DNA of 64,000 nt from a phage (GCA_024683775.1 GCA_024683775.1_4106.1); one strand, 5' to 3'. Counted from the first letter of the stretch, positions 2,942 to 18,462 are shown. A program made the numbers and translations. Notes: generated by a model not told the origin, from the sequence alone.

Positions 2942-2947
2942 GTACAT

Positions 2948-4399: not shown

Positions 4400-4417
4400 A
4401 ATATTATCACAGTACTA

Positions 4418-4446
4418 TTGACATAGTTTGATAGTACTGGCATAAT
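4418..4446 (+). promoter_or_regulatory. sigma70-like promoter (TTGACA-17-CATAAT)
   Basis: Hexamers read directly; the same cassette recurs near 7260, 7520 and 15450. Confidence 0.6.
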
Positions 4447-4489
4447 AGATTTTATCAAGACGACACATATTAATTTAAGGAATACTAAA

Positions 4490-4813
4490 ATGGCTAAAAC
4501 TATCATTAACACCGTTTCCCTGGCTGCAATCCGTGCAATCAATGTTGACGGTAAACGTTGGACTGATTCATATGGCAATACTTATCATTCTTGTCATGTA
4601 AGCGTTGAACTGGATAACGGTTTGAATGATCTGGCGGTTGAATCATTTACTTATGGCTATGAAGATGCATATCAACAAACGGCGTTAGATCTCTTAAAGG
4701 AATCAGTAGACGGGCTTAATACTGATGACACCTCCCTTACTCGTTTGTGCAATGATCTTAATATCCCGTTGCATTGTACTGTACAGAATGTTAAACGCAA
4801 AAAAGATCTTTAA
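4490..4813 (+). CDS. hypothetical protein (107 aa), paralog of CDS 10978
   Basis: ORF; shares RWTDSxGNTYHSC and FTYGY motifs and C-terminal KRKKD with CDS 10978. Confidence 0.7.
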   Translation: MAKTIINTVSLAAIRAINVDGKRWTDSYGNTYHSCHVSVELDNGLNDLAVESFTYGYEDAYQQTALDLLKESVDGLNTDDTSLTRLCNDLNIPLHCTVQNVKRKKDL

Positions 4814-4893
4814 TTAGCTTTACTTTATGCAGATACTTTGATATAGTGTCTGCATAGGGGAAAGAAATTAAATTAACTTAAGAGGAACGTATA

Positions 4894-5163
4894 ATGAAAA
4901 ATATCAGTACTTTAATCGACGCAGGTACACATGTTCGGCGGTCTATGGTTGCAACCAGTACTACAAAACAAGTACCAAGCGGTTATCTTGTATTTGTGCA
5001 CGATGGTAAACTCCTGGAACGTTCAATCAATTTTGATGTTAAAAACAATTGCCGTTTTATTATCTTTAAGCGTGAGCAATATAAAATTGATTTACCAGCA
5101 AAGCCCATAAGCGGGGCGTACAACGTGCAATCATTGTTTGAACGTCAACCATACACCTATTAA
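4894..5163 (+). CDS. hypothetical protein (89 aa)
   Basis: ORF; SD AAGAGGAA upstream. Confidence 0.65.
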   Translation: MKNISTLIDAGTHVRRSMVATSTTKQVPSGYLVFVHDGKLLERSINFDVKNNCRFIIFKREQYKIDLPAKPISGAYNVQSLFERQPYTY

Positions 5164-5214
5164 TCAAAACATCGTTAGCGGTCGATTTAGGCCGCTTATA
5201 TTGGGGATTATACC

Positions 5215-5487
5215 ATGAACGTTAATCAAGTACTGAATGAGATCGAAAGCATCATTAAACCGATGAAGCGTACTGATGCTATGTTAACACCGGAAGAATG
5301 CCGCCTTTATGAGCGTTACAGCGTCGAACAAGTCCAGGCGATGGCTATGGCTACCCCAGCCGTTAAACCGCCTGAGAATGCGTTACAGGACGTTACAGGG
5401 GATTATATCATCAATCCAGTACTAGGGAAGATGGCTGCAATCACCGAAGATCAACAAGACTACTTAAGCCAGTACTTAAAAGGTTAA
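5215..5487 (+). CDS. hypothetical protein (90 aa)
   Basis: ORF; SD-like GGGG before ATG. Confidence 0.6.
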   Translation: MNVNQVLNEIESIIKPMKRTDAMLTPEECRLYERYSVEQVQAMAMATPAVKPPENALQDVTGDYIINPVLGKMAAITEDQQDYLSQYLKG

Positions 5488-5492
5488 TTAAT

Positions 5493-5702
5493 ATGCTTAC
5501 TGTACAGGATAAGATCGACATCTTAAAGGTTAATATGTATGTGATTGATGCAGTACCTGGTAAAGTATTTGCATACGATGACAGTACTGTAAGCGATTTC
5601 TACTATAGCCAGGCCGTGGGGGATCTTTCTGTACAGTCGGTTATTGAAAACGTAGTTAATGCAGCGTATGAGCATTTACTTTCAAATAGTACTTGCAATT
5701 AG
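5493..5702 (+). CDS. hypothetical protein (69 aa)
   Basis: ORF 5 nt after previous stop; likely co-translated. Confidence 0.55.
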   Translation: MLTVQDKIDILKVNMYVIDAVPGKVFAYDDSTVSDFYYSQAVGDLSVQSVIENVVNAAYEHLLSNSTCN

Positions 5703-5771
5703 TTTTTAAACGCGTATAATGTTTTACATGAAGGGGAGAAATGATTCTCCCCACTAATTAAGGAATATGAA

Positions 5772-5918
5772 ATGAAAGCATCAAAAAAGAGTACTAACAA
5801 GAAAGCACGTTCAACCTTAGATGGGGTATTCCCTTTACGTTTCGTTGATGAAGTAGTTTCCTACCCGCCGGGCCTTACTCCTGAGATGGTAGAAAGTTTG
5901 CGTAAATCTAAAAAATAG
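5772..5918 (+). CDS. hypothetical small basic protein (48 aa)
   Basis: Short ORF not in track; promoter, hairpin and SD AAGGAA upstream. Confidence 0.5.
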   Translation: MKASKKSTNKKARSTLDGVFPLRFVDEVVSYPPGLTPEMVESLRKSKK

Positions 5919-5999
5919 TACTTGCAATTAGTTTTTAGTACTGTATAATGTTTTACATGAAGGGGAGAAATGATTCTCCCCAATAACAGGAGAAACAAA

Positions 6000-6152
6000 A
6001 TGAAACAATACAACGCTCGGTTTGATGTTACTATCGGTAACGGCAAAGGTCAATTCTCTTTCAGTACTCGCAAAAGTTATACAGAAAACTTCCTGCGTAA
6101 TTGTGCACTGACCGCCGCTCAAATTAAACATTATTTTCAGGCTAAAAAATGA
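6000..6152 (+). CDS. hypothetical protein (50 aa)
   Basis: ORF; promoter, hairpin, SD AGGAGA upstream; trimmed from track ORF 5970. Confidence 0.6.
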   Translation: MKQYNARFDVTIGNGKGQFSFSTRKSYTENFLRNCALTAAQIKHYFQAKK

Positions 6153-6238
6153 GATCATTAGCTTATTACAGTTCGGCCCTGGTCGGTGCATTGATCGCGG
6201 CGTTGTTAGTAACCTATCTATTCTTTATGGTGATTTAA
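6149..6238 (+). CDS. possible hydrophobic peptide (29 aa)
   Basis: ATGA overlap with previous stop; single hydrophobic helix; very short, so speculative. Confidence 0.3.
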   Translation: MRSLAYYSSALVGALIAALLVTYLFFMVI

Positions 6239-6382
6239 ATGAATCCAACAGGTTTAAACTATAAAAGTTGTTCGGCGTTTACGAAAGCAAATAAAGCGAA
6301 TGCACGTAAAGCGAAAGTACAGGAATACATCAAGCAAGGCATGACGCGAAAGGCGGCGATTCTAAAAGCTAAAAATAAATGA
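6239..6382 (+). CDS. hypothetical small basic protein (47 aa)
   Basis: Short ORF directly after previous stop; Lys/Ala-rich; terminator downstream. Confidence 0.4.
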   Translation: MNPTGLNYKSCSAFTKANKANARKAKVQEYIKQGMTRKAAILKAKNK

Positions 6383-6384
6383 AA

Positions 6385-6478
6385 AAAGTGGTTGACTCCG
6401 GTCAGCCATTTTGCTATTATATATTCATTGAGAGATAGCTCACTAGCCCACAGGGTGCATAAGTGTATCTATTATATG
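6385..6478. repeat. composite intergenic repeat, copy 1
   Basis: Terminator hairpin (6389-6414) overlapping TTGACT-17-TATTAT, then conserved box CCCACAGGGTGCATAAGTGTATCT; similar copies at about 10025, 13310, 16082. Confidence 0.7.
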
Positions 6479-6593
6479 AGTATTGAGTACTGAAAACTAT
6501 TTGATAAAAAGTACTTGCAAACTATCTCAATAAGCGTATAATGTTTTACATCGAAAGGGGAAACGGTTTCCCCTGGTAATAAGGAAACGAATC

Positions 6594-6935
6594 ATGACTA
6601 TCTCAATTGCTCAATCTAACTTTGAAAATGAAATCATCGCCCAGGCACTGCGTTTAAATGATGGTCGGGCCGAAATTAATTACGGTTTCAATTCAGGCGG
6701 TTGCGAAAACTATCAGTACTTTGTAACGGCTGATGGCGGTGTCCTGGGTATCAATACAGTTATTGTAAACATCCAAAAAATTAATTTCAATGATCCAGAC
6801 GATAGCCAGTTTTACATCACTGGCGTAGACGTGAACTATGAGGATGACTCACTAACTGATGATTACACTGGCGAGCGGTTAGAAAGTGCATACGGTGAAG
6901 ATGATTATCAGTCCGGTCCAGAAGATTTCGAATAA
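6594..6935 (+). CDS. hypothetical acidic protein (113 aa)
   Basis: ORF; promoter, hairpin GGGGAAACGGTTTCCCC and SD upstream. Confidence 0.7.
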   Translation: MTISIAQSNFENEIIAQALRLNDGRAEINYGFNSGGCENYQYFVTADGGVLGINTVIVNIQKINFNDPDDSQFYITGVDVNYEDDSLTDDYTGERLESAYGEDDYQSGPEDFE

Positions 6936-7028
6936 TATAAAAAAATAGTTTGACAATAGATTATAGTACTGTATAATGTTTTACATGAAGGGGAGAATAG
7001 TTCTCCCCACTAACAGAGAGAAAACAAA

Positions 7029-7241
7029 ATGGCTAATATCTGCACTGTACTGAAAAATGCAAAACAAGTTTTATTTTCTGATCACGATCATTTAAACAAG
7101 GATATTACTGGCGTTCGGAATATCAAAGATGTAAAAAGTGTTATGGGTATCTATTGCAATATGAAACGTGTCGGCACGTTCGGCGATAAAGTACTATACC
7201 AGGCAGGGGATTACAATTTTACACTGACTATCATTAACTAA
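7029..7241 (+). CDS. hypothetical protein (70 aa)
   Basis: ORF; promoter TTGACA...TATAAT, hairpin and SD upstream. Confidence 0.7.
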   Translation: MANICTVLKNAKQVLFSDHDHLNKDITGVRNIKDVKSVMGIYCNMKRVGTFGDKVLYQAGDYNFTLTIIN

Positions 7242-7324
7242 AAATATTATCACAGTACTATTGACATAGTTTTATAGTACTGACATAATAACTTTTATCA
7301 ACTACACTACTAAGGAATTAAAAA

Positions 7325-7504
7325 ATGGCTATCATCGCAAAAACTGAAATCGTTGGTCTGGATTCTATCATCATGACGTTTGAAGATCAAAAAGGTATGT
7401 ATGTAGTTTCATATGGTGATTATGTTCGGGAGTATGAAACGGTAGACGAAGCCTTTGAAAGTTATATTCGCCAGGTGAATAAAGCATACGACGACTACCG
7501 CTAA
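7325..7504 (+). CDS. hypothetical protein (59 aa)
   Basis: ORF not in track; type-III promoter and SD AAGGAA upstream. Confidence 0.55.
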   Translation: MAIIAKTEIVGLDSIIMTFEDQKGMYVVSYGDYVREYETVDEAFESYIRQVNKAYDDYR

Positions 7505-7594
7505 AATATATTACCAGTACTATTGACATTGTTTGATAGTACTGTATAATAAGTTTTATAAACAGTAGTTAACTTAACCTAAGAGAGAAATAAA

Positions 7595-7738
7595 ATGATC
7601 GCACTGGATTCATTCATCGACGCAGTACTGGCAAAAACTGGCGAGGATCTGACCGCAGAACAATACGCGATGATCGAGCAATGTCAGCAAAACGGTAAAT
7701 CGGTGAAAGATACTGTTAAGATTATCCGCAAGATGTAA
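7595..7738 (+). CDS. hypothetical protein (47 aa)
   Basis: ORF not in track; promoter and SD AAGAGAGA upstream; hairpin downstream. Confidence 0.5.
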   Translation: MIALDSFIDAVLAKTGEDLTAEQYAMIEQCQQNGKSVKDTVKIIRKM

Positions 7739-7759
7739 TATTATAGCCCACTGGTTAAC

Positions 7760-7767
7760 GCTGGTGG
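7760..7767 (+). other. Chi octamer GCTGGTGG
   Basis: Exact match inside the hairpin after CDS 7595. Confidence 0.8.
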
Positions 7768-7837
7768 GCTATAATCATTTACCCTATACAATGCCAGTAC
7801 TCAACCGTTTATCTCGTTAGAATGCGTTACAGGACGT

Positions 7838-8041
7838 TTGACAATGATTAGCATGAAATCAGTACAAAAACAAATAGAAACATTATCAAAAATTAAACGT
7901 AAACAGTACTCGTTAGAATATACAATCAATGGTAACTATCATCTAATGAAAGAGAATAATTTCATTGTCATTGATGAATCATTGCAAGTTATTAGTATAG
8001 TACTGAAAGCATTAATCAATGACAGAAAAAAATTAAAATAA
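7838..8041 (+). CDS. hypothetical protein (67 aa)
   Basis: ORF only; no clear promoter cassette or SD. Confidence 0.35.
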   Translation: MTMISMKSVQKQIETLSKIKRKQYSLEYTINGNYHLMKENNFIVIDESLQVISIVLKALINDRKKLK

Positions 8042-8268
8042 TCTATTGACAATATCCTCCAGTACTGGCATAATACTTACATCAAGACGAGAACGTCACT
8101 AACCCATAGGGTGCACAAATGTAACTATATAATATCGATCAATAAATGATCAAAAAGTACTGGATCAATTTAGCATAAGGCGTATAATTCTGATCAATTC
8201 TTGATCAAAGGCAATATACGCAGTTGAATTTATATAGACAGTACAAAGGCGTTACTATCCGTGGTAAT

Positions 8269-8276
8269 GCTGGTGG
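8269..8276 (+). other. Chi octamer GCTGGTGG
   Basis: Exact match read in sequence. Confidence 0.8.
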
Positions 8277-8369
8277 ATATGTAGTATCATATGGTTTGAA
8301 TAAGATAAACACTAGTAGTATTATTGTAGCATTACAGTACTATAGTATTTTTATAATGAGGTTAAAATA

Positions 8370-8627
8370 ATGGCAGTAGGATACGCGAAAGACGGGGCCG
8401 AACAAGACGAGATTCACGCAGTGATTCAGGCAGCCGTTAACCACGCTAGAAAGCAAATTAACGCACAAAGAGAATCACTGGTACATTGCCTCGACTGCGG
8501 CGATAAAATCCCTGAGAATCGACGCCAGGCCGTTATAGGGTGCATGTATTGTATTACTTGCCAGGAGGATCATGATAGTACTTTTAAAAGAGATCCGCGT
8601 AATTGTTGGCATAGATCTATGAGATAA
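8370..8627 (+). CDS. TraR/DksA-family C4 zinc-finger protein (85 aa)
   Basis: CxxC-17-CxxC spacing (CLDCG...CMYCITC) near the C-terminus as in TraR/DksA proteins; SD TGAGG upstream. Confidence 0.7.
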   Translation: MAVGYAKDGAEQDEIHAVIQAAVNHARKQINAQRESLVHCLDCGDKIPENRRQAVIGCMYCITCQEDHDSTFKRDPRNCWHRSMR

Positions 8628-8690
8628 AAAGTATTGACAGTACTGAAAGATAGTGTATAATGTTTTATATCTTAACTGAGGATAGTAATC

Positions 8691-9047
8691 ATGGGAATAC
8701 AACATATCACGCGTACTACTGACAATGGCGAGATCACTGGTTATCAGGTACAGGGCAAAGTAGCACAATTGCAGTACTGGTTTGTTAAACGTGGAATCAT
8801 TGCACCGGATCTTGATTATGACCGTGTAGCGTTTATTGATTCTCTTTATGTTGATCCTGATAGTCGGGGCAATGGTGAAGGTAACGAATTAATGAATGCC
8901 TTTATTGATGCCGCCGATGATTCAGATTGTATCATCTTAGAATGCGATACGGGAGAAGATAACGCCTTTAATCTTAAAGAATGGTACGAAGGTTTCGGAT
9001 TCGAGGTACTGATCGATAGTGAATATCCTATCATGATTTTATCATAG
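8691..9047 (+). CDS. GNAT-family N-acetyltransferase-like protein (118 aa)
   Basis: Motif LYVDPDSRGNGEGNELMNAFI resembles the GNAT acetyl-CoA binding motif A; promoter and SD upstream. Confidence 0.6.
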   Translation: MGIQHITRTTDNGEITGYQVQGKVAQLQYWFVKRGIIAPDLDYDRVAFIDSLYVDPDSRGNGEGNELMNAFIDAADDSDCIILECDTGEDNAFNLKEWYEGFGFEVLIDSEYPIMILS

Positions 9048-9125
9048 TACTTGCATTTAGTTTTCAGTACTGTTATAGTACTTGCATCAAGGGGAAACAT
9101 CTTCCCCTACTAAGAGGAAATAAAA

Positions 9126-9314
9126 ATGGAAAACTTATCAAGTATTTTAGTACAAGATGATTTCGGTAATCCTGGAAGTGCTATCATTGTTCGGGGCAAT
9201 AAAGCAACGTTTGTTATTGCTGGTGGACCCGTACAGCGTAGCATTAAAAATAATGCTGTTACCATTAATAATGTACGCTATCGCTTAGATAAAGAATTAA
9301 TTCATAAACTGTAA
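9126..9314 (+). CDS. hypothetical protein (62 aa)
   Basis: ORF; hairpin GGGGAAACATCTTCCCC and SD AAGAGGAAA upstream; contains a Chi octamer. Confidence 0.65.
   Translation: MENLSSILVQDDFGNPGSAIIVRGNKATFVIAGGPVQRSIKNNAVTINNVRYRLDKELIHKL
9219..9226 (+). other. Chi octamer GCTGGTGG
   Basis: Exact match read in sequence. Confidence 0.8.
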
Positions 9315-9399
9315 AAAAGTACTGGACAATAGATTATAGTACTGTATAATAGTTTACATGAAGGGGAGAAATGATTCTCCCCACTAAGAGGAAAGAAAA

Positions 9400-9612
9400 A
9401 TGCAAGGTCAACTAATCGTTCGTAAATGGTCTGATACTAACGAAAAACCGTGGGATGTACAATACATCGCCCCAAATGGTGAATCCAGATATCAACCAGG
9501 TGTAACGCATAGTACTGAGCAATTCGCCGCCGCTCATCGCGAACGTCTGTTACAATCAATGCAGCACGGTTCCGGTGAAAAATTCATTCAGGATCATTGG
9601 CTGAAAGATTAA
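9400..9612 (+). CDS. hypothetical protein (70 aa)
   Basis: ORF; promoter, hairpin GGGGAGAAATGATTCTCCCC and SD upstream. Confidence 0.7.
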   Translation: MQGQLIVRKWSDTNEKPWDVQYIAPNGESRYQPGVTHSTEQFAAAHRERLLQSMQHGSGEKFIQDHWLKD

Positions 9613-9698
9613 AAAGTACTTGCACAGTACTGAATAAAGTGTATAATGTTTTATATCGGAAGGGGAATAGTTCCCCTCCTAACAAAGAGGAAAGTATA

Positions 9699-9872
9699 AT
9701 GGTCCAGGTAGAATTAACAGTACTGAAAGATCTGTTTTATCGGATTGGTACTACTGGCGAATATCCGAAGGGTGATAATGCAAAACTTTACGTATCACTC
9801 GACTTATGGCAACGCGAACAATTAGCAACGGCCTGGCGTAAAGGCAAAGCAGATAGCGAGGTGAAAGCATGA
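9699..9872 (+). CDS. hypothetical protein (57 aa)
   Basis: ORF; promoter, hairpin and SD AAGAGGAAA upstream; trimmed from track ORF 9597. Confidence 0.6.
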   Translation: MVQVELTVLKDLFYRIGTTGEYPKGDNAKLYVSLDLWQREQLATAWRKGKADSEVKA

Positions 9873-10018
9873 AAGAATTCTTATTTGAAGTAGTGTTTCA
9901 AGGTGTCGGTAATAACCAACTGATTCGATCAAGTGGTTATAATGTTAACCAGGCATGGAATAACATTAAACAAATGTACCCGAACGCTATCACATATCGC
10001 AACCCGAAAGAAGTTTAA
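9869..10018 (+). CDS. hypothetical protein (49 aa)
   Basis: ORF not in track; ATGA overlap with previous stop. Confidence 0.45.
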   Translation: MKEFLFEVVFQGVGNNQLIRSSGYNVNQAWNNIKQMYPNAITYRNPKEV

Positions 10019-10024
10019 AAATAA

Positions 10025-10112
10025 TTGAAAAAGGGATTGACTCCGGTCAGTCCCTTTGCTATTATATACGCATAGAAACAAATTAGCCCACCGGGTGCAT
10101 AAATGTATCTAT
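10025..10112. repeat. composite intergenic repeat, copy 2
   Basis: Terminator hairpin AAAGGGATTGAC-TCCG-GTCAGTCCCTTT overlapping TTGACT-17-TATTAT, then conserved box CCCACCGGGTGCATAAATGTATCT. Confidence 0.7.
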
Positions 10113-10117
10113 TGTTT

Positions 10118-10125
10118 GCTGGTGG
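10118..10125 (+). other. Chi octamer GCTGGTGG
   Basis: Exact match just downstream of repeat copy 2. Confidence 0.8.
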
Positions 10126-10166
10126 CTAGTACTATCAAGTACTGAAAACTATTTTTAAAAAAGTAC

Positions 10167-10194
10167 TTGCAAAGTATCACGATAAGCGTATAAT
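10167..10194 (+). promoter_or_regulatory. sigma70-like promoter (TTGCAA-16-TATAAT)
   Basis: Hexamers read directly; upstream promoter of a duplicated double-promoter leader. Confidence 0.6.
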
Positions 10195-10282
10195 GTTTTA
10201 CATCAGGACGGGGAACGAAATAAGTAACCCCGTTAAGTAGTCCAGGAGTAAGACATACGAAAAACTCCCCTGATAAAATAGT

Positions 10283-10310
10283 TTGACAATAGAAAGTAAA
10301 CGAGTATAAT
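10283..10310 (+). promoter_or_regulatory. sigma70-like promoter (TTGACA-16-TATAAT)
   Basis: Consensus hexamers; about 30 nt upstream of CDS 10344. Confidence 0.65.
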
Positions 10311-10343
10311 ACTTACATCAACCACTGATAAGGAAACATTAAA

Positions 10344-10619
10344 ATGCGGACTTTACTTACAGCTAACGAAATCGAGCAAGTACTGACTACTAATCTGGAA
10401 CAATGGAAACGTGAAGCAGATATCCAGGCGGTTCAATGCCTTAACGATAAGTTAACGCCAGATGACTTAAGCACGATTGTTGATCCACAATTTTATGAAG
10501 ATATTCACGACACGTCTTTAAGCGTCGAGGATGTACTTGATAAGCACTACATTGATACTGATTTACATGTTTACGGTCGTAAAAACTTTATCACTATTCA
10601 CGACATTTACAATACTTAA
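10344..10619 (+). CDS. hypothetical acidic protein (91 aa)
   Basis: ORF; double-promoter leader and SD AAGGAA upstream. Confidence 0.7.
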   Translation: MRTLLTANEIEQVLTTNLEQWKREADIQAVQCLNDKLTPDDLSTIVDPQFYEDIHDTSLSVEDVLDKHYIDTDLHVYGRKNFITIHDIYNT

Positions 10620-10707
10620 GTATTGACAAAGTATCTTAGTACTGTATAATAGTTTACATCAAGTGAGGGGAAACGGTTCCCCTCCTAACAAAGAGAGAGA
10701 AATTAAA

Positions 10708-10890
10708 ATGGCTAAGTGCACTATCTGTAAGAAAGAAATCGTATTAGTTCCAAGTGCCCGTGAACGTGCCGCTCGGTTCGGTGGCAAAGCGTCAGACTAT
10801 ACAAAAATGTTTACTGCCCATGCAGCTTGTCAAGTAGCAAAACGTTCACAAGAAAGCGTAGAATTAATGCGTAAACTTTCCAAAAAATAA
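10708..10890 (+). CDS. hypothetical protein (60 aa, CxxC plus HxxC)
   Basis: ORF; promoter, hairpin and SD upstream; trimmed from track ORF 10663. Confidence 0.65.
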   Translation: MAKCTICKKEIVLVPSARERAARFGGKASDYTKMFTAHAACQVAKRSQESVELMRKLSKK

Positions 10891-10977
10891 GTATTGACAA
10901 AGTATCTTAGTACTGTATAATAGTTTACATCAAGCGAGGGGAATGGTTCCCCTCCTAACAAAGAGAGAGAAATAAAA

Positions 10978-11301
10978 ATGGCTATGATCCTTACCCAGAA
11001 AGTAGAACTGAAAATTGTAACCTCCTTTGACATTAAAGTTAATCGGTGGACTGATAGCCACGGCAATACTTACCACTCCTGCTACGTGTCCGCATTGATT
11101 GGTGATCGCTGGGAAGACCTGGGACACGAAACCTTTACATACGGTTACGGCACACAAGGTGAGTACACGGGTTTAGAAATCATTAAGGAAACTGTAATAG
11201 GTTTCAACCCGAAAGAGAAAGTACTACACAGAATTGAGAAAGAGATCAACAAAGAAATTACAGTTCGCTACTACGATGTAAAACGTAAGAAAGACATGTA
11301 A
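10978..11301 (+). CDS. hypothetical protein (107 aa), paralog of CDS 4490
   Basis: ORF; upstream cassette almost identical to that of CDS 10708; shares motifs with CDS 4490. Confidence 0.7.
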   Translation: MAMILTQKVELKIVTSFDIKVNRWTDSHGNTYHSCYVSALIGDRWEDLGHETFTYGYGTQGEYTGLEIIKETVIGFNPKEKVLHRIEKEINKEITVRYYDVKRKKDM

Positions 11302-11400
11302 TAGAATCCATTTAAAGTACTATTTGACATTGCCCAGATAGTACTTTATAATAGACTCTAACTTGTAGTACTAATTAACTTAACTAATAGGATGTACACC

Positions 11401-11796
11401 ATGATTACTAAATTCTTCGCTACCCGTGAACAAGCTCGCATCGTTGCCCGTGAGGAAGGTGAAACATTTAAAGACATGGGTAAAGATTCTCCTACTGGTA
11501 AACGCTGGGCGGTACAGTTCAAAGAGATCTCTGATATTGTGAATTCACCTGAGCCTGTACTTACAGCAGCAGAACTAAAGCAAGCTCAAGAACTGGCTGA
11601 AGTACTGAACGCTCAAGATGACTTCTTGAAAGGTTCTGATATTGAAGTTACAGTTAACGCAAATGCATGGACTCACGCGGATCACCTGGCAAACCTTAAG
11701 CGTCCAAGTGAACTGATTCGCAACCAGAAAGAGATCCGACACGACCGTAAGGGTAATCGTGTAACAGTATACAGTAAACGCCGCCAGGTTATCTAA
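11401..11796 (+). CDS. hypothetical protein (131 aa)
   Basis: ORF; promoter TTGACA...TATAAT upstream; start chosen at second ATG after AGGA. Confidence 0.65.
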   Translation: MITKFFATREQARIVAREEGETFKDMGKDSPTGKRWAVQFKEISDIVNSPEPVLTAAELKQAQELAEVLNAQDDFLKGSDIEVTVNANAWTHADHLANLKRPSELIRNQKEIRHDRKGNRVTVYSKRRQVI

Positions 11797-11818
11797 TAAC
11801 TTGCAGTACTAACAACAC

Positions 11819-11843
11819 GGCGGGATCAGTTCCCGCCTTTTTT
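11819..11843 (+). terminator. rho-independent terminator
   Basis: Hairpin GGCGGGA-TCAG-TTCCCGCC followed by TTTTTT. Confidence 0.75.
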
Positions 11844-11857
11844 ATAGGACAAACAAA

Positions 11858-12112
11858 ATGATTAAGGTTCAACTATATAAAGATAACATCTTACGGGTAC
11901 ACTATAAAGCACCTCAGAGAATCATCACAAAGGCCGTACAGCTTGCTAATGAGTTTATTAATGGTAACCTATTACCTAGGAAGTTAAGCAACGGGAAACT
12001 GCGTGTAATCGACGTGGACACTAACAACAGGATAGTAATCGAGAACACAGGAAAGATAAACCTTTATGAGCATCAACAATACAATAAGAAAATAAAACTA
12101 ATATCACGTTGA
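11858..12112 (+). CDS. hypothetical protein (84 aa)
   Basis: ORF; SD-like sequence upstream. Confidence 0.6.
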   Translation: MIKVQLYKDNILRVHYKAPQRIITKAVQLANEFINGNLLPRKLSNGKLRVIDVDTNNRIVIENTGKINLYEHQQYNKKIKLISR

Positions 12113-12165
12113 CAGTACTCAATTGTTTTAGTACTATGTACACATACCAACACGGGAGAAACAAA

Positions 12166-12384
12166 ATGAAATTATCTAAAATCGAAAAGAAAACTATTGA
12201 TGAAGCAGTTAAGCACGGTTATACCTTTCGTAATGATTCACATTTTACCAATTTTCAACAAGGGTATCGTACTATTAAAAAACTAATTGACAAAGGTTTA
12301 TTAGTTGAAGTCAATAACGGTAACGGTATCGAGTATCAACCAACACAAGACGCATTTTATTTTAAGAAATATAATATTATCTAA
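12166..12384 (+). CDS. hypothetical protein (72 aa)
   Basis: ORF; promoter and SD GGGAGAAA upstream; trimmed from track ORF 12109. Confidence 0.65.
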   Translation: MKLSKIEKKTIDEAVKHGYTFRNDSHFTNFQQGYRTIKKLIDKGLLVEVNNGNGIEYQPTQDAFYFKKYNII

Positions 12385-12442
12385 TTGACAGTACTCAATT
12401 GTTTTAGTATTATGTACACATACCAACACGGGGGGAAACAAA

Positions 12443-12685
12443 ATGATTACTTTAGAAAAACGTATCAAAGAAACTACATCGCTGGTGGAACTGTTAACAG
12501 TACTCAAATGTAAAACAACACCATTCAGCACGCCGGACTTTATTAATATGGTTGATGTTAATGGTCGCTATCGTATCACGGTCGAACAAGGAGCGGCGAA
12601 AGTATTCAGTACTAAAAACACTAAGGAAGTGATCCACGCCGTTAATGTTAAAAAAGTAGTTGCCATTGATAGTAAAGTACTGTAA
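12443..12685 (+). CDS. hypothetical protein (80 aa)
   Basis: ORF; upstream about 60 bp is a near-identical copy of the region upstream of CDS 12166. Confidence 0.65.
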   Translation: MITLEKRIKETTSLVELLTVLKCKTTPFSTPDFINMVDVNGRYRITVEQGAAKVFSTKNTKEVIHAVNVKKVVAIDSKVL

Positions 12686-12716
12686 TATAGTTTCATTAAC
12701 TCAAGGAGAACATGCA

Positions 12717-13301
12717 ATGCGTAAATATACTAAATTCATCCGTACACTGTCAGAAATGGAAACCAACAAAGAGATCCTTTCAGCTTGTCGGTTAGCTGGC
12801 CTGGAGATCATCGGTGCTGGTTCTTCCCGTATAGTATTCGCTTTAAATGATCGGTTAGTGATTAAGGTCGCGAATTGTGATGCGGGTGTCGAACAAAATG
12901 AAACTGAATGTAAGGTATGGAATTTTTTAGACTATGACCGCCCTCAGTTGAAACAGTACTTTGCAAAGGTGCATATGCATTTATGCGATCCTGATAATAT
13001 GTTTATCGTTATGGATCGGTTGAGTACTGCAAGCAAAGGCAGTGTGAAGCACGTAAACGCGTGCAATGAATTAAAGTACAATATTAAACGTAATGCAATC
13101 GAACGCCAGCACCGCTTTGCTGATGCACTACAACACGTTGATGATACATTATCAACACTAACGATAAGAGATATCAGAAAACAGAATATCGGCCAGGATC
13201 GTAATGGACTTATTAAAGTACTTGATTACGGTTTAACCAGCAATATCTGGAATCAGTACTATAAAAAGCGTGATGTGGCAGCAAGTAAGGTAACACGATA
13301 A
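12717..13301 (+). CDS. protein-kinase-like protein (194 aa)
   Basis: Gly-rich loop IGAGSSRIVF, VIKVA lysine, catalytic-loop-like RDIRKQNIG and DFG-like VLDYG in the expected order; SD AAGGAGAA upstream; trimmed from TTG-start track ORF 12660. Confidence 0.6.
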   Translation: MRKYTKFIRTLSEMETNKEILSACRLAGLEIIGAGSSRIVFALNDRLVIKVANCDAGVEQNETECKVWNFLDYDRPQLKQYFAKVHMHLCDPDNMFIVMDRLSTASKGSVKHVNACNELKYNIKRNAIERQHRFADALQHVDDTLSTLTIRDIRKQNIGQDRNGLIKVLDYGLTSNIWNQYYKKRDVAASKVTR

Positions 13302-13309
13302 AAAAGATT

Positions 13310-13400
13310 AAAAAAGGGATTGACTCCGGTCAGTCCCTTTGCTATTATATATCCATTGAGAGATAACTCACTGACCCATAGGGTGCGGAAGTGTATCTAT
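13310..13400. repeat. composite intergenic repeat, copy 3
   Basis: Terminator hairpin overlapping TTGACT-17-TATTAT, then box CCCATAGGGTGCGGAAGTGTATCT. Confidence 0.7.
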
Positions 13401-13525
13401 TATATAAGTATTCAGTACTGAAAACTATTTGATAAAAAGTACTTGCAAACTATCTCAATGAGCGTATAATGTTTTATATCGAGAGGGGGAAATGGTTCTC
13501 CCTGGTACTAAAAGGAATCAAGACG

Positions 13526-13747
13526 ATGACTACTATGACCTGCGTTCACGCTTCAAATCTTCTGAATGATGCAGCATTTAAAGCAGGTGAAGAATATCAA
13601 TGCTATCGGGATGAAAATAAAAAAGTTTTCGTCGTTGATGCTAACGGTTTCCATATTGAATTGCAATCCGGCTTCACTGGTTTAAATGGTAAATCAGTAT
13701 GGGGCGTTAATGATGATAATGGTCTTTATCACTTTATCCGTAATTAA
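13526..13747 (+). CDS. hypothetical protein (73 aa)
   Basis: ORF; promoter, hairpin and SD AAAGGAA upstream; trimmed from track ORF 13469. Confidence 0.65.
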   Translation: MTTMTCVHASNLLNDAAFKAGEEYQCYRDENKKVFVVDANGFHIELQSGFTGLNGKSVWGVNDDNGLYHFIRN

Positions 13748-13831
13748 GTATTTGACAAAGTATATCAGTACTGTATAATAGTTTACATCAAGGGGAGAAT
13801 AGTTCTCCCCGATACTAAAAGGAATAAAATC

Positions 13832-14239
13832 ATGACTACTACCAATCAAGCTCGGAACATCACCAACGATAAAAATCATGCTGCAATGGTCGCTGGATAC
13901 ATTGAAGCTATGCAATTCAGTACTGTATACAATGAGAACGGCGATTACCTGGAAGATTATGAATTATCAGAGCAAGCCCATCAAGCGGCAGTGATTGCAT
14001 GTTCACGTTTCCTTGCTGTACATGGTGAAGATATGGAAACAGTACAAAAACACCATAATCCTGATTATACTTATAGTCATGCAGGTCATGATCTCTTTCT
14101 TACTCGCGAAGGTCACGGCACTGGTTTTTGGGATCGTGGTTTAGGTCACTATGGCGATGTATTCACGAAGTACTGCGAAGAAATCAACGTTTGCGATCCC
14201 TATGTAGGCGATGATAACTTAATCTATATGGGCGAATAA
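13832..14239 (+). CDS. hypothetical protein (135 aa)
   Basis: ORF; promoter TTGACA...TATAAT, hairpin GGGGAGAATAGTTCTCCCC, SD upstream. Confidence 0.7.
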   Translation: MTTTNQARNITNDKNHAAMVAGYIEAMQFSTVYNENGDYLEDYELSEQAHQAAVIACSRFLAVHGEDMETVQKHHNPDYTYSHAGHDLFLTREGHGTGFWDRGLGHYGDVFTKYCEEINVCDPYVGDDNLIYMGE

Positions 14240-14328
14240 AAGTATTTGACAAAGTATATCAGTACTGTATAATAGTTTACATCAAGGGGAGAATAGTTCT
14301 CCCCACACCAATAAAAGGAAACAAAATT

Positions 14329-14601
14329 ATGTCCAGCTACTCCGCTACTATGATCATTAAAGATATGAACGGTAATCCTACTTCTGCTGGTGGATCATTT
14401 GGAAATATTAACTTAGATGGGCGGTTATCCATGCAATCAGCCATCGATGCAGCGAAAGAAGTTTTTAAGAATGAATGTACTGTTAGTAAGCTGGATTATA
14501 TGGGTTTCGCTATCGAGAAAACTACTCGTTTTGTGAACTACAAAAATCCACTGATGATTGATACTAACCTGAAAGCTAACGAAGTGGGGTACTTATTATG
14601 A
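14329..14601 (+). CDS. hypothetical protein (90 aa)
   Basis: ORF; upstream cassette duplicates the one upstream of CDS 13832; contains a Chi octamer. Confidence 0.7.
   Translation: MSSYSATMIIKDMNGNPTSAGGSFGNINLDGRLSMQSAIDAAKEVFKNECTVSKLDYMGFAIEKTTRFVNYKNPLMIDTNLKANEVGYLL
14385..14392 (+). other. Chi octamer GCTGGTGG
   Basis: Exact match read in sequence. Confidence 0.8.
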
Positions 14602-14789
14602 CAGTAGAAGAAGTAAAAAAAGTACTGGCAGTACTACGATATCATAATCATTGCAAGGTGAAGAATGATCCTGATTATCTTGATTCATCCCTGGAGGAAG
14701 ACACCTTGAACGCTATAAGCCATATGCAGACATTAGCAAAGCGTATGACTGAAAAGAACATGCCGGACTATATCGGAAATAAAATTTAA
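14598..14789 (+). CDS. hypothetical protein (63 aa)
   Basis: ORF; ATGA overlap with previous stop. Confidence 0.6.
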   Translation: MTVEEVKKVLAVLRYHNHCKVKNDPDYLDSSLEEDTLNAISHMQTLAKRMTEKNMPDYIGNKI

Positions 14790-14876
14790 AAAGTACTTGC
14801 ATTGTAGTTAGATTAACGTATAATGTTTTATATCGAGAGGGGGAAATGGTTTCCCCTCAAGTCCAGGAGATACACC

Positions 14877-15140
14877 ATGAACACTATCGAAATCACTATC
14901 AATGCACACGTATACGACAACGTAGTACTGCAAACTACTATGACCGCCAATGATACCAGTACTTTGCGGAATACTGTTATTAGTGCCGTATGTGCCGCTA
15001 TCGGTGATGTCGCCCTGGAAAATGCAAAACACGTAAACGATGGTTTCACTATGTGCAAACGTGATAACGCAAAACATATCATCGTGGAAGGTTACGGCGG
15101 TGTAGAATTTAATGTTTATATGAAAAAAGTACTTGCATAA
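14877..15140 (+). CDS. hypothetical protein (87 aa)
   Basis: ORF; promoter, hairpin, SD CAGGAGA upstream; trimmed from track ORF 14823. Confidence 0.7.
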   Translation: MNTIEITINAHVYDNVVLQTTMTANDTSTLRNTVISAVCAAIGDVALENAKHVNDGFTMCKRDNAKHIIVEGYGGVEFNVYMKKVLA

Positions 15141-15207
15141 TAACTAAAACAAAGTATAATGTTTTGCATAGGGGGAGATATCCTCCCCCACTAAAAGGAG
15201 TAATAAA

Positions 15208-15432
15208 ATGGCTAACTTTGATGAACTGATGCGGGAAGTAGCTAACCTGGCAGAAGAGAAGAAATCATTCGATTCTATCTATAACACCGCTCACCGTGAT
15301 TCAGTACTGGCATGTAACCAGGATCAAAAAGATGAACTAATCGCCACCTATCATGAAGCATGGAAGTACTACCGACAATGGGAGAAAGAAGAAAGTGAGT
15401 CTACCATTGACGGCCTCAATAATCTAATCTAA
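15208..15432 (+). CDS. hypothetical protein (74 aa)
   Basis: ORF; promoter, hairpin GGGGGAGATATCCTCCCCC and SD upstream. Confidence 0.7.
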   Translation: MANFDELMREVANLAEEKKSFDSIYNTAHRDSVLACNQDQKDELIATYHEAWKYYRQWEKEESESTIDGLNNLI

Positions 15433-15508
15433 AAGTTTTATTTCAGTACTATTGACATAGCTTGATAGTACTGATGTAATAACTTTACTAACTACAAGGG
15501 GAAACATA

Positions 15509-15766
15509 ATGGATCAGTTCACACAATATCGGGTAAATCCTCAAGCTATGGCCTACGTAGAAGACCATAAAACGTTACCAGTACTGCAACCAGTTAAAGG
15601 CCATATCTATCGTGCAATGTCGTGGTGTACGGCCCAGGATGGCTATAAAACCGTAGCCGTGGGTATGTATTGCGGTGATGGTGAATGGTTTGATCCAAAT
15701 AATCCGGTATCCATTGACAGTACTGAAAAAATGAAATGGGCCGACTACATCGAAGATATTTCATAA
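15509..15766 (+). CDS. hypothetical protein (85 aa)
   Basis: ORF; type-III promoter and SD upstream. Confidence 0.65.
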   Translation: MDQFTQYRVNPQAMAYVEDHKTLPVLQPVKGHIYRAMSWCTAQDGYKTVAVGMYCGDGEWFDPNNPVSIDSTEKMKWADYIEDIS

Positions 15767-15856
15767 AAACTATTTGACAGTACTAACCAGTAATGTATAA
15801 TGTTTTACATAGAGCGGGGGAATAGTTCTCCCGCCAATAGTTTGGAGTAAAACATT

Positions 15857-16057
15857 ATGTCTATCGCTATCGCCCTGGTTGAAGTACTGAAAGAAGCTAA
15901 AGCCAACCAGATCGACGTAAAGATCCAGGAACTACAAAACGGCTTAATCGGCTGTACTTGTACCGCTGGTGGAGCGGCAGACTATCGAGAACACGAATCA
16001 CTCGAATCACTGGTTCGGTATCTTACCATGATCGTTGATGATTGGAGAATCATCTAA
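15857..16057 (+). CDS. hypothetical protein (66 aa)
   Basis: ORF; promoter, hairpin and SD upstream; contains a Chi octamer. Confidence 0.65.
   Translation: MSIAIALVEVLKEAKANQIDVKIQELQNGLIGCTCTAGGAADYREHESLESLVRYLTMIVDDWRII
15965..15972 (+). other. Chi octamer GCTGGTGG
   Basis: Exact match read in sequence. Confidence 0.8.
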
Positions 16058-16081
16058 CAAAAAAGAATAAAAAAAGGGATT

Positions 16082-16154
16082 GACTCCGGTCAGTCCTTTT
16101 GCTATTATATACGCATAGACAAAAACTAGCCCACAGGGTGCATAGGTGTATCCA
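16082..16154. repeat. composite intergenic repeat, copy 4
   Basis: Terminator hairpin overlapping TTGACT-17-TATTAT, then box CCCACAGGGTGCATAGGTGTATCC. Confidence 0.7.
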
Positions 16155-16187
16155 AAATATATAGTTAATAACGGTGAGTAACTATCT

Positions 16188-16195
16188 GCTGGTGG
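16188..16195 (+). other. Chi octamer GCTGGTGG
   Basis: Exact match just downstream of repeat copy 4. Confidence 0.8.
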
Positions 16196-16302
16196 AACTA
16201 AAACTATTAATAAAAAAGTATTGACAAAGTATATCAGTACTGCAATAATGTATCTCGTAGGGCGGCAATGGTGCGACGGCCCACAAAGTTAGGAGATTCA
16301 AA

Positions 16303-16638
16303 ATGACTACTTCAATCGCTATCGTTAAAGCTTTCATCCGTACTAATGTTTCCTCTGTATTCATCGACGGCCTCGACCGTAACGTAGAATACTCAATCAT
16401 TATCGCACAAACGGCAAACGGTTCTCGGTACATCCTGAATGATAGTGAAGCAAATCACTACTACTTCACTAAAGCCACTGGCTTTAAACGCATCGATGCT
16501 GATGTAGTATACGCTAAGATGAATAAGCTGGTAGACAAGATTAACGCGAAAGGTACTATCGATTTACAGTACTGGACCGAAACCGATCCAGAGTATGGAT
16601 CTCACCGCTACCTGAATCCAGGTATTAAAATGAAATAG
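16303..16638 (+). CDS. hypothetical protein (111 aa)
   Basis: ORF; promoter TTGACA...(C)AATAAT and SD TAGGAGA upstream. Confidence 0.7.
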   Translation: MTTSIAIVKAFIRTNVSSVFIDGLDRNVEYSIIIAQTANGSRYILNDSEANHYYFTKATGFKRIDADVVYAKMNKLVDKINAKGTIDLQYWTETDPEYGSHRYLNPGIKMK

Positions 16639-16723
16639 TACTTGCATAGTACTTAGATTCATGTATAATGTTTTACATAGAGAGGGGGAAATGGTTCTCC
16701 CTCCTAAATTAAGGAGTTTTATC

Positions 16724-17125
16724 ATGACCTTCTCAATCACTTCCTTCGCTGACGTTTTAGTACTGGCCCGGACTTTTGGTAAAGCTGGCCTTGAACACGC
16801 TGTAAGTAATGGTCATATGCACCCTGAATATTGCCGCATCATTGGAAGCTGCAAACGTTGGGCAGTGTCCCGTAATATTGAGATTGAAAACTTCAATGAC
16901 GGCAACAACGAATATACAGTTGATGCAGTATTCGAAGCCGTTGATCTCGGCGGTATCTATAACACTAACCTGAATGATGTGCGTATCGTTCGCACGGGGT
17001 TCGGTGCTTATGATGTATCTATCCGTGAAGCTATGGACAAGGGATACATTAGCAAGGACCAGTTAGCTTACATCATGCAGCAAACTAAGGAGCGTAATGA
17101 AGCACGTACTATCTTAGGGCTGTAA
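16724..17125 (+). CDS. hypothetical protein (133 aa)
   Basis: ORF; promoter, hairpin and SD TAAGGAG upstream; trimmed from track ORF 16661. Confidence 0.7.
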   Translation: MTFSITSFADVLVLARTFGKAGLEHAVSNGHMHPEYCRIIGSCKRWAVSRNIEIENFNDGNNEYTVDAVFEAVDLGGIYNTNLNDVRIVRTGFGAYDVSIREAMDKGYISKDQLAYIMQQTKERNEARTILGL

Positions 17126-17193
17126 GCAATACACATCACCAAACATCATAGGCCGCTCTCTAGCGGCCTTAACTATATCAGGAGTACATACAC

Positions 17194-17403
17194 ATGATCT
17201 ATACAGTATATAGCGTTCTAGGCACTATTGCAGGCGTACATGATAACGTCGATGGTGCTATGCGTACAGTACTGCAACAGGTTCCACTAAAGCCTAAGAC
17301 CATTAAGCAGATGACAGCACGACTAACCAGGGCGACGGCTGGCGTGGAAGTATGGCAGGACTATGGGGATACACAGATAATCGTAAGCGTAACGAAGGAT
17401 TAA
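17194..17403 (+). CDS. hypothetical protein (69 aa)
   Basis: ORF; hairpin AGGCCGCT-CTCT-AGCGGCCT then SD CAGGAG upstream. Confidence 0.65.
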   Translation: MIYTVYSVLGTIAGVHDNVDGAMRTVLQQVPLKPKTIKQMTARLTRATAGVEVWQDYGDTQIIVSVTKD

Positions 17404-17594
17404 TGCGTAAAAGGATTTAGTACTGAATCATAAAAAAGTCAAGGCATTTTTAAACTTCAGCGTTAAAAAAATGCATAGGTAATCCCTTGACTTTTATGAA
17501 TAAAAAGGGATTGGACTATGGCAAAATGCGTAGGGGGCTAAAGGGCGGGTAACCTTAGCGACTTCGATAAAGGGGTATTACTTATAAAATGTTA

Positions 17595-17622
17595 TTGACT
17601 TTTTATATGAATCGTATATTAT
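17595..17622 (+). promoter_or_regulatory. candidate promoter of the family A operon (TTGACT ... TATTAT)
   Basis: Only sigma70-like hexamer pair between the zone-1 end and the first family A gene. Confidence 0.5.
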
Positions 17623-17652
17623 TGGATTGATATTATTTTTAATGGAGTCCCT

Positions 17653-17850
17653 ATGCGTATTTTAACTCAAGAAGAGCACAACCACACACTCATATCCAAC
17701 ATGGCATATATCCTACATATGTCACATATCCGTGGTATTGCATATAAGCGTGAATTGGTTATGAAACTTTTCATAGGAACTAACTATCAAGAAAAGTATA
17801 TCGAACTATACTTACAAGAATTACGAAGGGACATAAAAGGTAGACTATGA
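17653..17850 (+). CDS. family A small protein (65 aa)
   Basis: ORF; SD AATGGAG upstream; C-terminal motif GTNYQEKYIELYL. Confidence 0.7.
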   Translation: MRILTQEEHNHTLISNMAYILHMSHIRGIAYKRELVMKLFIGTNYQEKYIELYLQELRRDIKGRL

Positions 17851-18047
17851 AAATGCGTATTTTAAATAAAGAAGATTATCAAGAACTGTTACGTAAAAAC
17901 ATGGTAAAGATTTATAACACAGACACAAACTTAGAACGAATTGAGTTATACCTTTTGATTACATTGGGAACAAGCTATCAGGGAAGATGGGTGATTCAAT
18001 ATATGGATGCATTGAAAAATGAAATATTATCCACGAGGAAACAATGA
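17847..18047 (+). CDS. family A small protein (66 aa)
   Basis: Family A motif LGTSYQ; ATGA overlap with neighbour. Confidence 0.7.
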   Translation: MKMRILNKEDYQELLRKNMVKIYNTDTNLERIELYLLITLGTSYQGRWVIQYMDALKNEILSTRKQ

Positions 18048-18253
18048 AAACTATAACACGAACCCAATCATACGGTCTTATCTTGAGATACATGGACTTA
18101 ATGTTGGATATCAGAAAAGACCTTCCTAAAACTGCAATTGAAGTTGCAAGAGCAGAGATCCGCATGTTGGCTGTACTGAACACAAACCATCAGGAAGAGT
18201 ATGTTGACGATTGGATTCGATTTTTAATAGAAGATATTAAGAGGAAACTATGA
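18044..18253 (+). CDS. family A small protein (69 aa)
   Basis: Family A motif LNTNHQEEY; ATGA overlap. Confidence 0.7.
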   Translation: MKTITRTQSYGLILRYMDLMLDIRKDLPKTAIEVARAEIRMLAVLNTNHQEEYVDDWIRFLIEDIKRKL

Positions 18254-18462
18254 TTTTTTTAACACCAGAAGAATATAAGATACGTTTTGTTTCTGTCCAG
18301 AATAAAATCTTAATTATATACAATTCAAATGCAGACCTTAACTTATCAAGGGTATTAGAAAAAGATTTACTTATGGGTGCATTTTTGGATACAGACTTTC
18401 AGGTGTATTATGTAGGGGAATACTTAATTGCACTCCAGAATTACATTAAGAGTAAACTATGA
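18250..18462 (+). CDS. family A small protein (70 aa)
   Basis: Family A motif LDTDFQ; ATGA overlap. Confidence 0.7.
   Translation: MIFLTPEEYKIRFVSVQNKILIIYNSNADLNLSRVLEKDLLMGAFLDTDFQVYYVGEYLIALQNYIKSKL

Follow-up and report, generated by a model that had tools for sequence, protein, structure and literature searches.

The PeSL (promoter-early stem-loop) cassettes of T4-like phages (Arbiol 2010; Comeau 2014) are the closest composite motif known. A PeSL joins an intergenic GC stem-loop with flanking A/T runs to a sigma-70-type early promoter, is repeated between small variable early genes, and is tied to indels in close relatives (PMC4122927). The stem-loop, the early promoter and the repetition between small early genes also mark a locus in a 64,000-nt stretch of phage DNA (GCA_024683775.1_4106.1, here called the window, with positions counted from its first letter), and the PeSL stem consensus in phage nt-1, A3-4G3-loop-C3T3-4, resembles its AAAGGG...CCCTTT. 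Lambda nut (boxA/boxB), HK022 put and the lambda PR'-qut-tR' region also place a hairpin and a conserved unpaired sequence close to a promoter, and in the lambda qut region a short terminated transcript, 6S, is made where the terminator is close. The window comes from an Asteriusvirus, a jumbo coliphage of the 121Q/PBECO4-like kind, and the locus carries a repeated unit in which a promoter, often embedded in a terminator-like hairpin, precedes a module built around the box RCCCAYNGGGTGCNNARRTGTA. This module is promoter-linked, strand-specific, structured and sharply conserved. The box matches no described family, and it may be a new RNA motif inside a terminator/promoter composite. The reading preferred here, with even or somewhat less than even confidence, is that of a multicopy immediate-early RNA whose short hairpin (P2) and the tail behind it would form the binding site of a conserved factor; the RNA would work as a free small RNA (sRNA) or decoy, or else as a leader.

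The box occurs without mismatch at 6446, 8102, 10086, 13374 and 16129, all on the + strand, where 0.02 matches are expected by chance. A covariance model of the unit, run over the 64 kb with filters off, finds five + strand units at 49-63 bits and a sixth, degenerate unit on the - strand (1873-1926) at 27.1 bits and E=4.5e-4 (the model's E-values are rough), with three mismatches to the box pattern. The model finds no further unit in the rest of the 64 kb, the next match scoring 11.9 bits, and a minus-strand promoter at 32-4 is part of another unit that is cut by the window edge. The unit consensus is UAR-CCC-AYA-GGG-UGC-RGARN-UGUAUCUAU, and unit 5 departs from the others in that its tail ends in UCCAA, not UCUAU. 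The initial annotation had recognized the box in four copies, and it is exact in all of them as well as at 8102; the supposedly partial fifth copy at 8097-8125 is a full unit in which an ordinary promoter replaces the hairpin-promoter. The same annotation had counted a lack of conservation beyond this genome as grounds for refutation, and this is not what is seen. The 51-nt unit is present in 68 phage records, at 1-10 places in each, and is nearly always unannotated or else overlapped by spurious 'hypothetical protein' calls. Nearly all of these records (67/68) are 310-386 kb long, the exception being the 51.8 kb Klebsiella-phage record phiKp_21, and their hosts belong to eight genera (Escherichia, Klebsiella, Salmonella, Erwinia, Yersinia, Serratia, Cronobacter and Pectobacterium). 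Contigs of viruses and metagenomes, scanned first with a pattern and then with the covariance model, yielded 144 units from RaK2-like phages, 118 of them distinct, in a collection that was partly seeded with a fixed pattern, which the model matches correct only in part. The RaK2-like phages that share the box have an average nucleotide identity (ANI) of only ~23-29% (PMC13070987).

Outside this group the box appears to be absent. A search of 5,426 complete E. coli genomes gave nothing, and a 20-base-specific pattern has one match among 185,579 species genomes of bacteria and archaea, roughly the number expected by chance; the covariance model does not confirm this match. The first 40 kb of the Pseudomonas relative PA5oct, which contain its 39 kb repeat, give no covariance-model match at E<=0.1. 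Rfam 15 has no match in the window at gathering thresholds and, with E<=10 as the limit, none that falls on a box within 6300-16400, and a literature search found no description of the box.

The covariation that marks RNA structure is present in the first hairpin, P1, which lies right after the start site in 90/118 units, compared with 23% of shuffles, and has 32 distinct arm pairs. In a gapless alignment of 23 sequences each of its four pairs shows changes in both partners, and pairing holds in 89% of cells; P1 scores 0.571 for covariation, well above all slid registers, as against 0.179 after shuffling (0/500 reach it), a control that overstates significance since the units are phylogenetically related. 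The last row of one P1 alignment has its tetraloop shortened by one base for register, which does not affect the P1 counts. Units that lack P1 have an A-rich unpaired stretch in its place. RNAalifold, unaided, finds the same P1 and P2. In P2, CCC pairs with GGG in 116/118 units and the double change CCU/AGG is seen in the other two, the loop is an AYN triloop in 110 units and a tetraloop in seven, and the closing pair is R-U in 117/118, including 58 G.U pairs that would be A.C mismatches on the opposite strand. The box, first described as lacking an obvious palindrome, does contain a small one, CCC-N3-GGG. The substitution pattern of P2 fits a hairpin in sense-strand RNA or in single-stranded non-template DNA rather than a duplex DNA site. 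The tail, UGC-RGARN-UGUAUCUAU, is conserved in sequence and shows no sign of pairing.

These changes bear on the reading, which is quite improbable, that the box is a DNA site and its transcription incidental: either an operator, or a phage-specific (middle-type) promoter with CCCAYAGGGTGC at about -35 to -24 and TATWRT at -12 to -7. The palindromic CCC-N3-GGG would suit such a site, as would the strong conservation of sequence and not just of pairing, and sigma-like factors are annotated in these phages (PMC5259590). Moreover, the 3' end of the tail has a -10-like hexamer (TATAGT, TATTAT or TATAAT) exactly 17 bp after CCCAYA (6470-6475, 8126-8131, 10110-10115 and 13398-13403), at positions 14-19 after P2, and this hexamer matches TATAAT in at least four of six positions in 88/118 units. 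However, only 51/118 units (43%) have TAnnnT, the P2 loop varies between 3 and 4 nt, two units show the compensatory CCT/AGG change, and the R-T closing pair of 117/118 units has no meaning in duplex DNA. The box also has a promoter of its own at a fixed distance upstream in 113/116 units, and in stand-alone units a box promoter would yield nothing but a terminator hairpin. The middle and late promoters predicted for CBB and GAP32 are other motifs (PMC5259590).

Other structures and known elements were considered and rejected. A hairpin in the 3' half (P3, UGC-N/N-UGUA) was rejected: its C-G pair is broken in the TCTATC/TCTGTC subfamily, and mutual information gives no Watson-Crick covariation. 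Single folds suggest that AGAUA or AUAG of the 5' segment could pair with UAUCU or CUAU of the tail in a long-range helix or pseudoknot, but matched partners do no better (-5.32 kcal/mol) than permuted ones (-5.12 kcal/mol; 16/200 permutations are as good). A reading of GGAG-NUG-UAU-CUA-UAG as a Shine-Dalgarno sequence and mini-open reading frame (ORF) was rejected, since the spacing is 0-1 nt and a start codon is lacking in one subfamily. The triplet that ends at the P2 closing base is TAG, TAA or TGA in 91/118 units (for example TAG at 6444-6446, TAA at 8100-8102 and TGA at 13372-13374) and TGG in two; in the one copy checked, the unit 1 transcript, no ORF runs into this stop-like triplet before P2. 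Of the likenesses to CsrA, MazF, CRISPR-repeat, ToxI, RfaH-ops, boxA and RegA sites, none appears to agree with the conserved positions.

A sigma-70 promoter with at least 9/12 matches lies upstream of the box in 113/116 units, and with at least 10/12 in 102, suggesting that the units are transcribed. In those 113 units the box begins 15-25 nt past the start site, and the gap between the -10 and P2 is 17 nt without P1 and 21-25 nt with it. In a separate test of gaps of 22-36 nt, a range that leaves out those of 17-21 nt, 10/12 is reached by 62% of units and by 1.7% of random positions. Four units of the window have the promoter in a hairpin, and here the initial annotation holds at every copy: a TTGACT -35 lies in the stem and a TATTAT -10 follows at 17 nt. 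Each of the four hairpins, with its 12-bp stem and T-rich tail, was independently called terminator-like and also a TG-preceded promoter, TTGACT-17-TATTAT, beginning at 6392, 10037, 13320 and 16080. They are predicted to be sigma-70 promoters and also intrinsic terminators, with a tail, TTTGCTATTAT, that is broken by GC, and the annotators of phage G17 labelled them as terminators too. The sequence GGATTGACTCCGGTCAGTCC is exact at 10034, 13317 and 16077, and the copy at 6385 is a variant with compensated stem changes. Among all phages the -35 lies inside a stable hairpin in 60/113 units. The overlap of terminator and promoter is further supported by 54 distinct versions in other genera, in which the TTGAC/GTCA core is kept and the outer stem covaries (GGGA/TCCC, GTGG/CCAT, GTAC/GTAC, GGGG/CCCC, AAGG/CCTT). 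Many of the loops are UCCG or C(UUCG)G, the latter a classic stable RNA tetraloop. A promoter within a terminator stem is a compact design that may be of interest for synthetic biology. In Klebsiella phages ATCTTTACAAA is repeated, often in tandem, 10-30 nt upstream of the box-promoter -35 (in Muenster near 13250, 21640, 23090 and 29660, for example). It also occurs upstream of the L002 unit at 3168.

The units often start at the terminator of the preceding operon, and sense units lie between this operon end and a second, stronger-looking promoter 40-70 nt downstream, which amounts to a tandem promoter arrangement. A hairpin with a T-rich tail is found within 110 nt in 17/114 units (~15%), about a dozen of them ~40 nt after P2, where it would give an RNA of ~100 nt. 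Several stand-alone units lie antisense to the gene array, and a converging operon supplies their terminator, which is bidirectional; in the example at 1873-1926 on the - strand, the terminator at 1830-1852 would end the RNA at ~100 nt. The genes that follow different units encode unrelated proteins, so the box is not a gene-specific operator; one conserved 113-aa gene (6594-6935) follows the box in three genera. A convergent pair of units, promoter-box facing box-promoter, recurs across genera 2.4-3.6 kb from the left genome end (L002 at 3100-3300 and Muenster, L062, at ~29400-29650; also L003, L012, L018, L026, L033, L056 and L059). A transcript that crosses such a pair would fold as a long imperfect hairpin, and the window begins inside one.

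The fixed promoter-proximal position of the box suits the main rival reading, doubtful but of some weight, in which the box is a cis-acting elongation signal like lambda nut, HK022 put or lambda qut/PR'-tR'. Polymerase would be modified at the box, through the nascent RNA hairpin and tail or by a factor that is loaded at a promoter-proximal pause, and would then read through early terminators. The 60/113 units with a hairpin-embedded -35 would restart transcription inside a terminator hairpin, and the first 20 kb of the window has eight plus-strand terminator-like hairpins. A hairpin followed by a conserved unpaired sequence recalls boxB/boxA in outline, and promoter, box and nearby terminator together recall lambda PR'-qut-tR', the source of 6S. 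The canonical box also fits the published pause consensus GG-N8-YG, and a sigma-dependent pause could arise from the -10-like hexamer, whose position in the tail is fixed. Yet the TCTATC/TCTGTC subfamily lacks the G+1 of the pause consensus, and neither the boxA consensus nor a boxB-type hairpin (5-bp stem, pentaloop) is present. The next genes could be expressed without read-through, as each sense unit has strong promoters behind it; from antisense or convergent units, read-through would run into the antisense of early operons. A Pfam search of only 10 repeat-encoded proteins identified no N-, Q- or NusG-like protein.

The region of the units is expected to be a direct terminal repeat of ~20 kb and is an array of very small + strand genes. 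With 6000-17000 as query, megablast finds 125 phage records, the best being Escherichia phage vB_Ec-M-J (Asteriusvirus, 378 kb) at 94.9% identity over 100% coverage, and the counterpart region lies within the annotated 21.5 kb direct terminal repeat of that phage. Colinearity of 16992-18091 with the vB_Ec-M-J repeat end places the boundary, by homology, at about 17,555 in the window, and position 1 of the window would be ~3.6 kb inside the repeat. Direct terminal repeats of ~20 kb have been proven experimentally in related phages (PMC13070987, PMC5259590). All units of the window lie to the left of ~17,555, and the covariance model finds none in the remaining 46 kb. In Klebsiella phage Muenster 8/8 units are within the annotated repeat, and in complete genomes the matches to the box pattern, by whole-contig scan, always span <=25 kb. 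Nearly every small gene of the repeat is preceded by a near-consensus sigma-70 promoter and a 5'-leader hairpin. Cassettes of ~95 nt with the strong early promoters recur (5676-5770, 5905-5999, 6933-7027, 9306-9400 and 13735-13829, among others), with a conserved leader hairpin, GGGGAGAA-nnn-TTCTCCCC, after the start site and ahead of the ribosome-binding site.

A further reading, which is highly improbable, is that the unit is only a PeSL-like mobile promoter/terminator cassette by which small early genes are spread and shuffled through recombination, the box being a conserved passenger or recombination site that lacks an RNA function. Modules of 200 nt stand at 88% identity beside unrelated genes (6372-6573 and 13300-13501), unit 2 is entirely an indel relative to phage G17, along with a 48-codon ORF, and synteny breakpoints among relatives coincide with promoter repeats. 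PeSLs are themselves composite terminator/promoter motifs with modular shuffling in T4-like phages (PMC4122927). However, recombination within a genome does not explain why a 30-nt core is nearly identical across genera at such low ANI (PMC13070987) while the flanks and P1 diverge, nor does it explain the hairpin-keeping substitutions and the fixed orientation and promoter distance. The other units are syntenic among Asteriusvirus genomes.

The Chi octamer GCTGGTGG does follow two units as first reported, at 10118-10125 directly after unit 3 and at 16188-16195 after unit 5; its proposed tie to the box is not supported. The window has 10 + strand sites (3786, 7760, 8269, 9219, 10118, 12481, 14386, 15965, 16188 and one more) and two - strand sites, with 0.22 expected per strand, which makes the enrichment repeat-wide and not box-specific; its orientation is that of transcription. 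Nine of the 10 + sites are in the repeat, and the Muenster repeat (13067-26863) has 7 vs 1, with 0.05 expected. Given the known polarity of Chi, the + strand sites would be expected to act on RecBCD that comes in at the right genome end, which holds the second copy of the repeat. Terminator-like hairpins at 2948-2964, 3679-3699 and 7744-7771, the last with a Chi site in its 3' arm, have stems AGCCCAC/GTGGGCT and open with the heptamer TAGCCCAC, which is common to many boxes. The palindrome AGTACT is found 249 times in the whole window, with 21 expected (11.6-fold), and is densest in 1-16000 and 32000-64000. It occurs in promoters, as AGTACTTGCA at the -35 and AGTACTGTATAAT at the -10, and after boxes as AGTACTGAA, and in other genera AGTACT pairs form hairpins. 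The 6-bp palindromes CCATGG, CAGCTG, AGGCCT, AGCGCT and ACCGGT are absent from the window.

The initial annotation had offered a small RNA, a protein-binding site or a recombination hotspot as functions of the box. The first fits best, given the promoter link, the covariation of P1, the G.U pairs and loop changes of P2 and some terminators; 'protein-binding site' may describe how the RNA works, and 'recombination hotspot' could possibly apply to the whole cassette, by analogy with PeSLs. Under the preferred reading of an immediate-early RNA, host sigma-70 polymerase would read the units once the terminal repeat enters the cell, from promoters that in many cases lie within the hairpin terminating the operon before. 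The RNA would start at the A of a conserved CAT, and either P1, which would protect the 5' end, or the A-rich stretch would come first. The conserved module would follow, comprising UAR, the P2 hairpin R-CCC-AYN-GGG-U and the unpaired tail, and P2 with the tail would dock a trans-acting factor conserved in Enterobacterales or in these phages. The ~100 nt RNA would be released if a terminator follows; otherwise the module would form the 5' leader of an early mRNA.

In a more specific version, which is unlikely, the box RNAs are a new class of phage weapon, a high-copy decoy that titrates a factor conserved in Enterobacterales; this might be a nuclease or sensor in defence, or else a global RNA-binding regulator. 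With the terminal repeat at both genome ends, there would be 10-16 gene copies, transcribed within the first minutes of infection. Such a decoy would explain the frozen 30-nt core in eight genera, the absence from the Pseudomonas relative, the stand-alone antisense copies and the independence from the downstream gene. A Pfam search for a partner among 10 repeat-encoded proteins found only a ParE-like toxin domain (PF24732, E=6e-11; gene 11858-12112, with relatives in nine phage groups) and a DksA/TraR zinc finger (PF01258; gene 8370-8627).

Several points weigh against an RNA that acts through P2 and the tail. The short P2 has three nearly invariant C-G pairs, and its covariation support comes down to two compensatory cases, the closing pair and the variation in loop length; part of the apparent invariance is owed to the pattern with which copies were collected. 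Mutual information reveals no covarying base pairs in the tail, the folding energies of single units are unexceptional (z-scores of -0.1 to -1.7), and target sites complementary to the box are not enriched in the window. In about 85% of units a nearby terminator is lacking, and transcription would run on into the second promoter and a gene. No transcriptome of a RaK2-like enterobacterial phage was found in the literature, and transcription is deduced from the promoter consensus alone. The features of the units are collected in Table 1.

Table 1. Positions of the box units, their promoters and associated hairpins in the window
Feature	Position	Strand	Basis
Bidirectional intrinsic terminator hairpin	1830-1852	both	terminator-like on both strands; fold of 1826-1925 (-)
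Degenerate unit: P1, ACCC-ACC-GGGU, tail GCCGAGAUCCGUCUAU; antisense to gene array	1873-1926	-	covariance model, fold
Promoter of degenerate unit, sigma-70-type, TTGACA-17-CATAAT with TG	1932-1960	-	promoter scan
Unit 1 hairpin 6385-6412, -35 TTGACT 6392-6397 inside, T-tail into -10 TATTAT 6415-6420	6385-6420	+	terminator and promoter scans
Unit 1 box RNA: start ~A6427, P1 6429-6442, P2 6446-6456 (GCCCACAGGGT), tail 6457-6472	6426-6477	+	61.4 bits
Second, stronger-looking promoter after unit 1, TTGCAA-16-TATAAT	6515-6542	+	promoter scan
Unit 2 promoter, TTGACA-17-CATAAT, without hairpin	8046-8074	+	promoter scan
Unit 2 box RNA: P1 8086-8097, P2 8102-8112 (ACCCATAGGGT), tail 8113-8128	8080-8133	+	51.8 bits
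Unit 3 terminator hairpin 10030-10057, embedded promoter 10037-10065	10030-10065	+	terminator and promoter scans
Unit 3 box RNA, without P1: A-rich 5' segment, P2 10086-10096, tail 10097-10112	10065-10117	+	53.7 bits
Equivalent of second promoter	10167-10194		
Unit 4 terminator hairpin 13313-13340, embedded promoter 13320-13348	13313-13348	+	terminator and promoter scans
Unit 4 box RNA: P1 13357-13370, P2 13374-13384 (ACCCATAGGGT), tail 13385-13400	13354-13405	+	63 bits
Equivalent of second promoter	13443-13470		
Unit 5 terminator hairpin 16073-16100, embedded promoter 16080-16108	16073-16108	+	terminator and promoter scans
Unit 5 box RNA, without P1: P2 16129-16139, tail 16140-16155	16108-16160	+	49 bits
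Equivalent of second promoter	16221-16249		

RaK2-like jumbo phages are isolated in large numbers as therapy candidates, and for ~80% of their genes no function is assigned. A conserved multicopy element in what is probably the first DNA to be expressed gives a handle on early infection. An RNA role would make it a new family among the few regulatory RNAs of phages, perhaps leading to a host factor that these phages have to neutralize or recruit, and a role in elongation would make it a new signal for antitermination. Recognition of the units would also improve annotation.

Among known systems, the host-takeover module of the Bacillus phage SPO1 resembles the repeat in its place in a long terminal redundancy and in its very small early genes, each with a strong host-sigma promoter, and frequent terminators. 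SPO1 is an unrelated phage of a Gram-positive host and is not known to have a conserved leader RNA motif there. Lambda nut differs in sequence, structure and number. The boxA consensus (CGCUCUUA / UGCUCUUUA) is not found in the tail, and in place of the boxB hairpin, with its 5-bp stem and GNRA-like or purine-rich pentaloop, P2 has a 4-bp stem and, in 110/118 units, an AYN triloop. There are 5-8 copies per repeat, some of them antisense or convergent, as against 1-2 nut sites per genome. The RNAs ncRNA001 and ncRNA002 of PA5oct, a distant relative, offer a precedent, being non-coding, located in a long terminal repeat and highly transcribed throughout infection (PMC7318152). They are single-copy, of 236 and 451 nt, and lack the box; they were rejected as homologues since there is no similarity. 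Compared with an Hfq-type sRNA, the units have the promoter in nearly all cases, the nearby terminator in 17/114, and no enriched targets in the window.

The likeness to PeSLs is the closest. As in PeSLs, a stem-loop stands beside a sigma-70-like early promoter in an AT-rich intergene. As to indels between close relatives, unit 2 is one relative to phage G17, and the other units are syntenic. There is no Shine-Dalgarno sequence with start codon at the 3' end. In a PeSL the promoter lies downstream of the stem, whereas here the -35 is within it, and the promoter leads into a 50-nt RNA module and then a second promoter, with no direct ribosome-binding site or start codon. PeSLs have no equivalent of the box, and the host phages are only distant T4-group relatives. 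With the -35 in the stem and with a box RNA, not a gene, as the sequence that it drives, the unit differs from this closest known composite.

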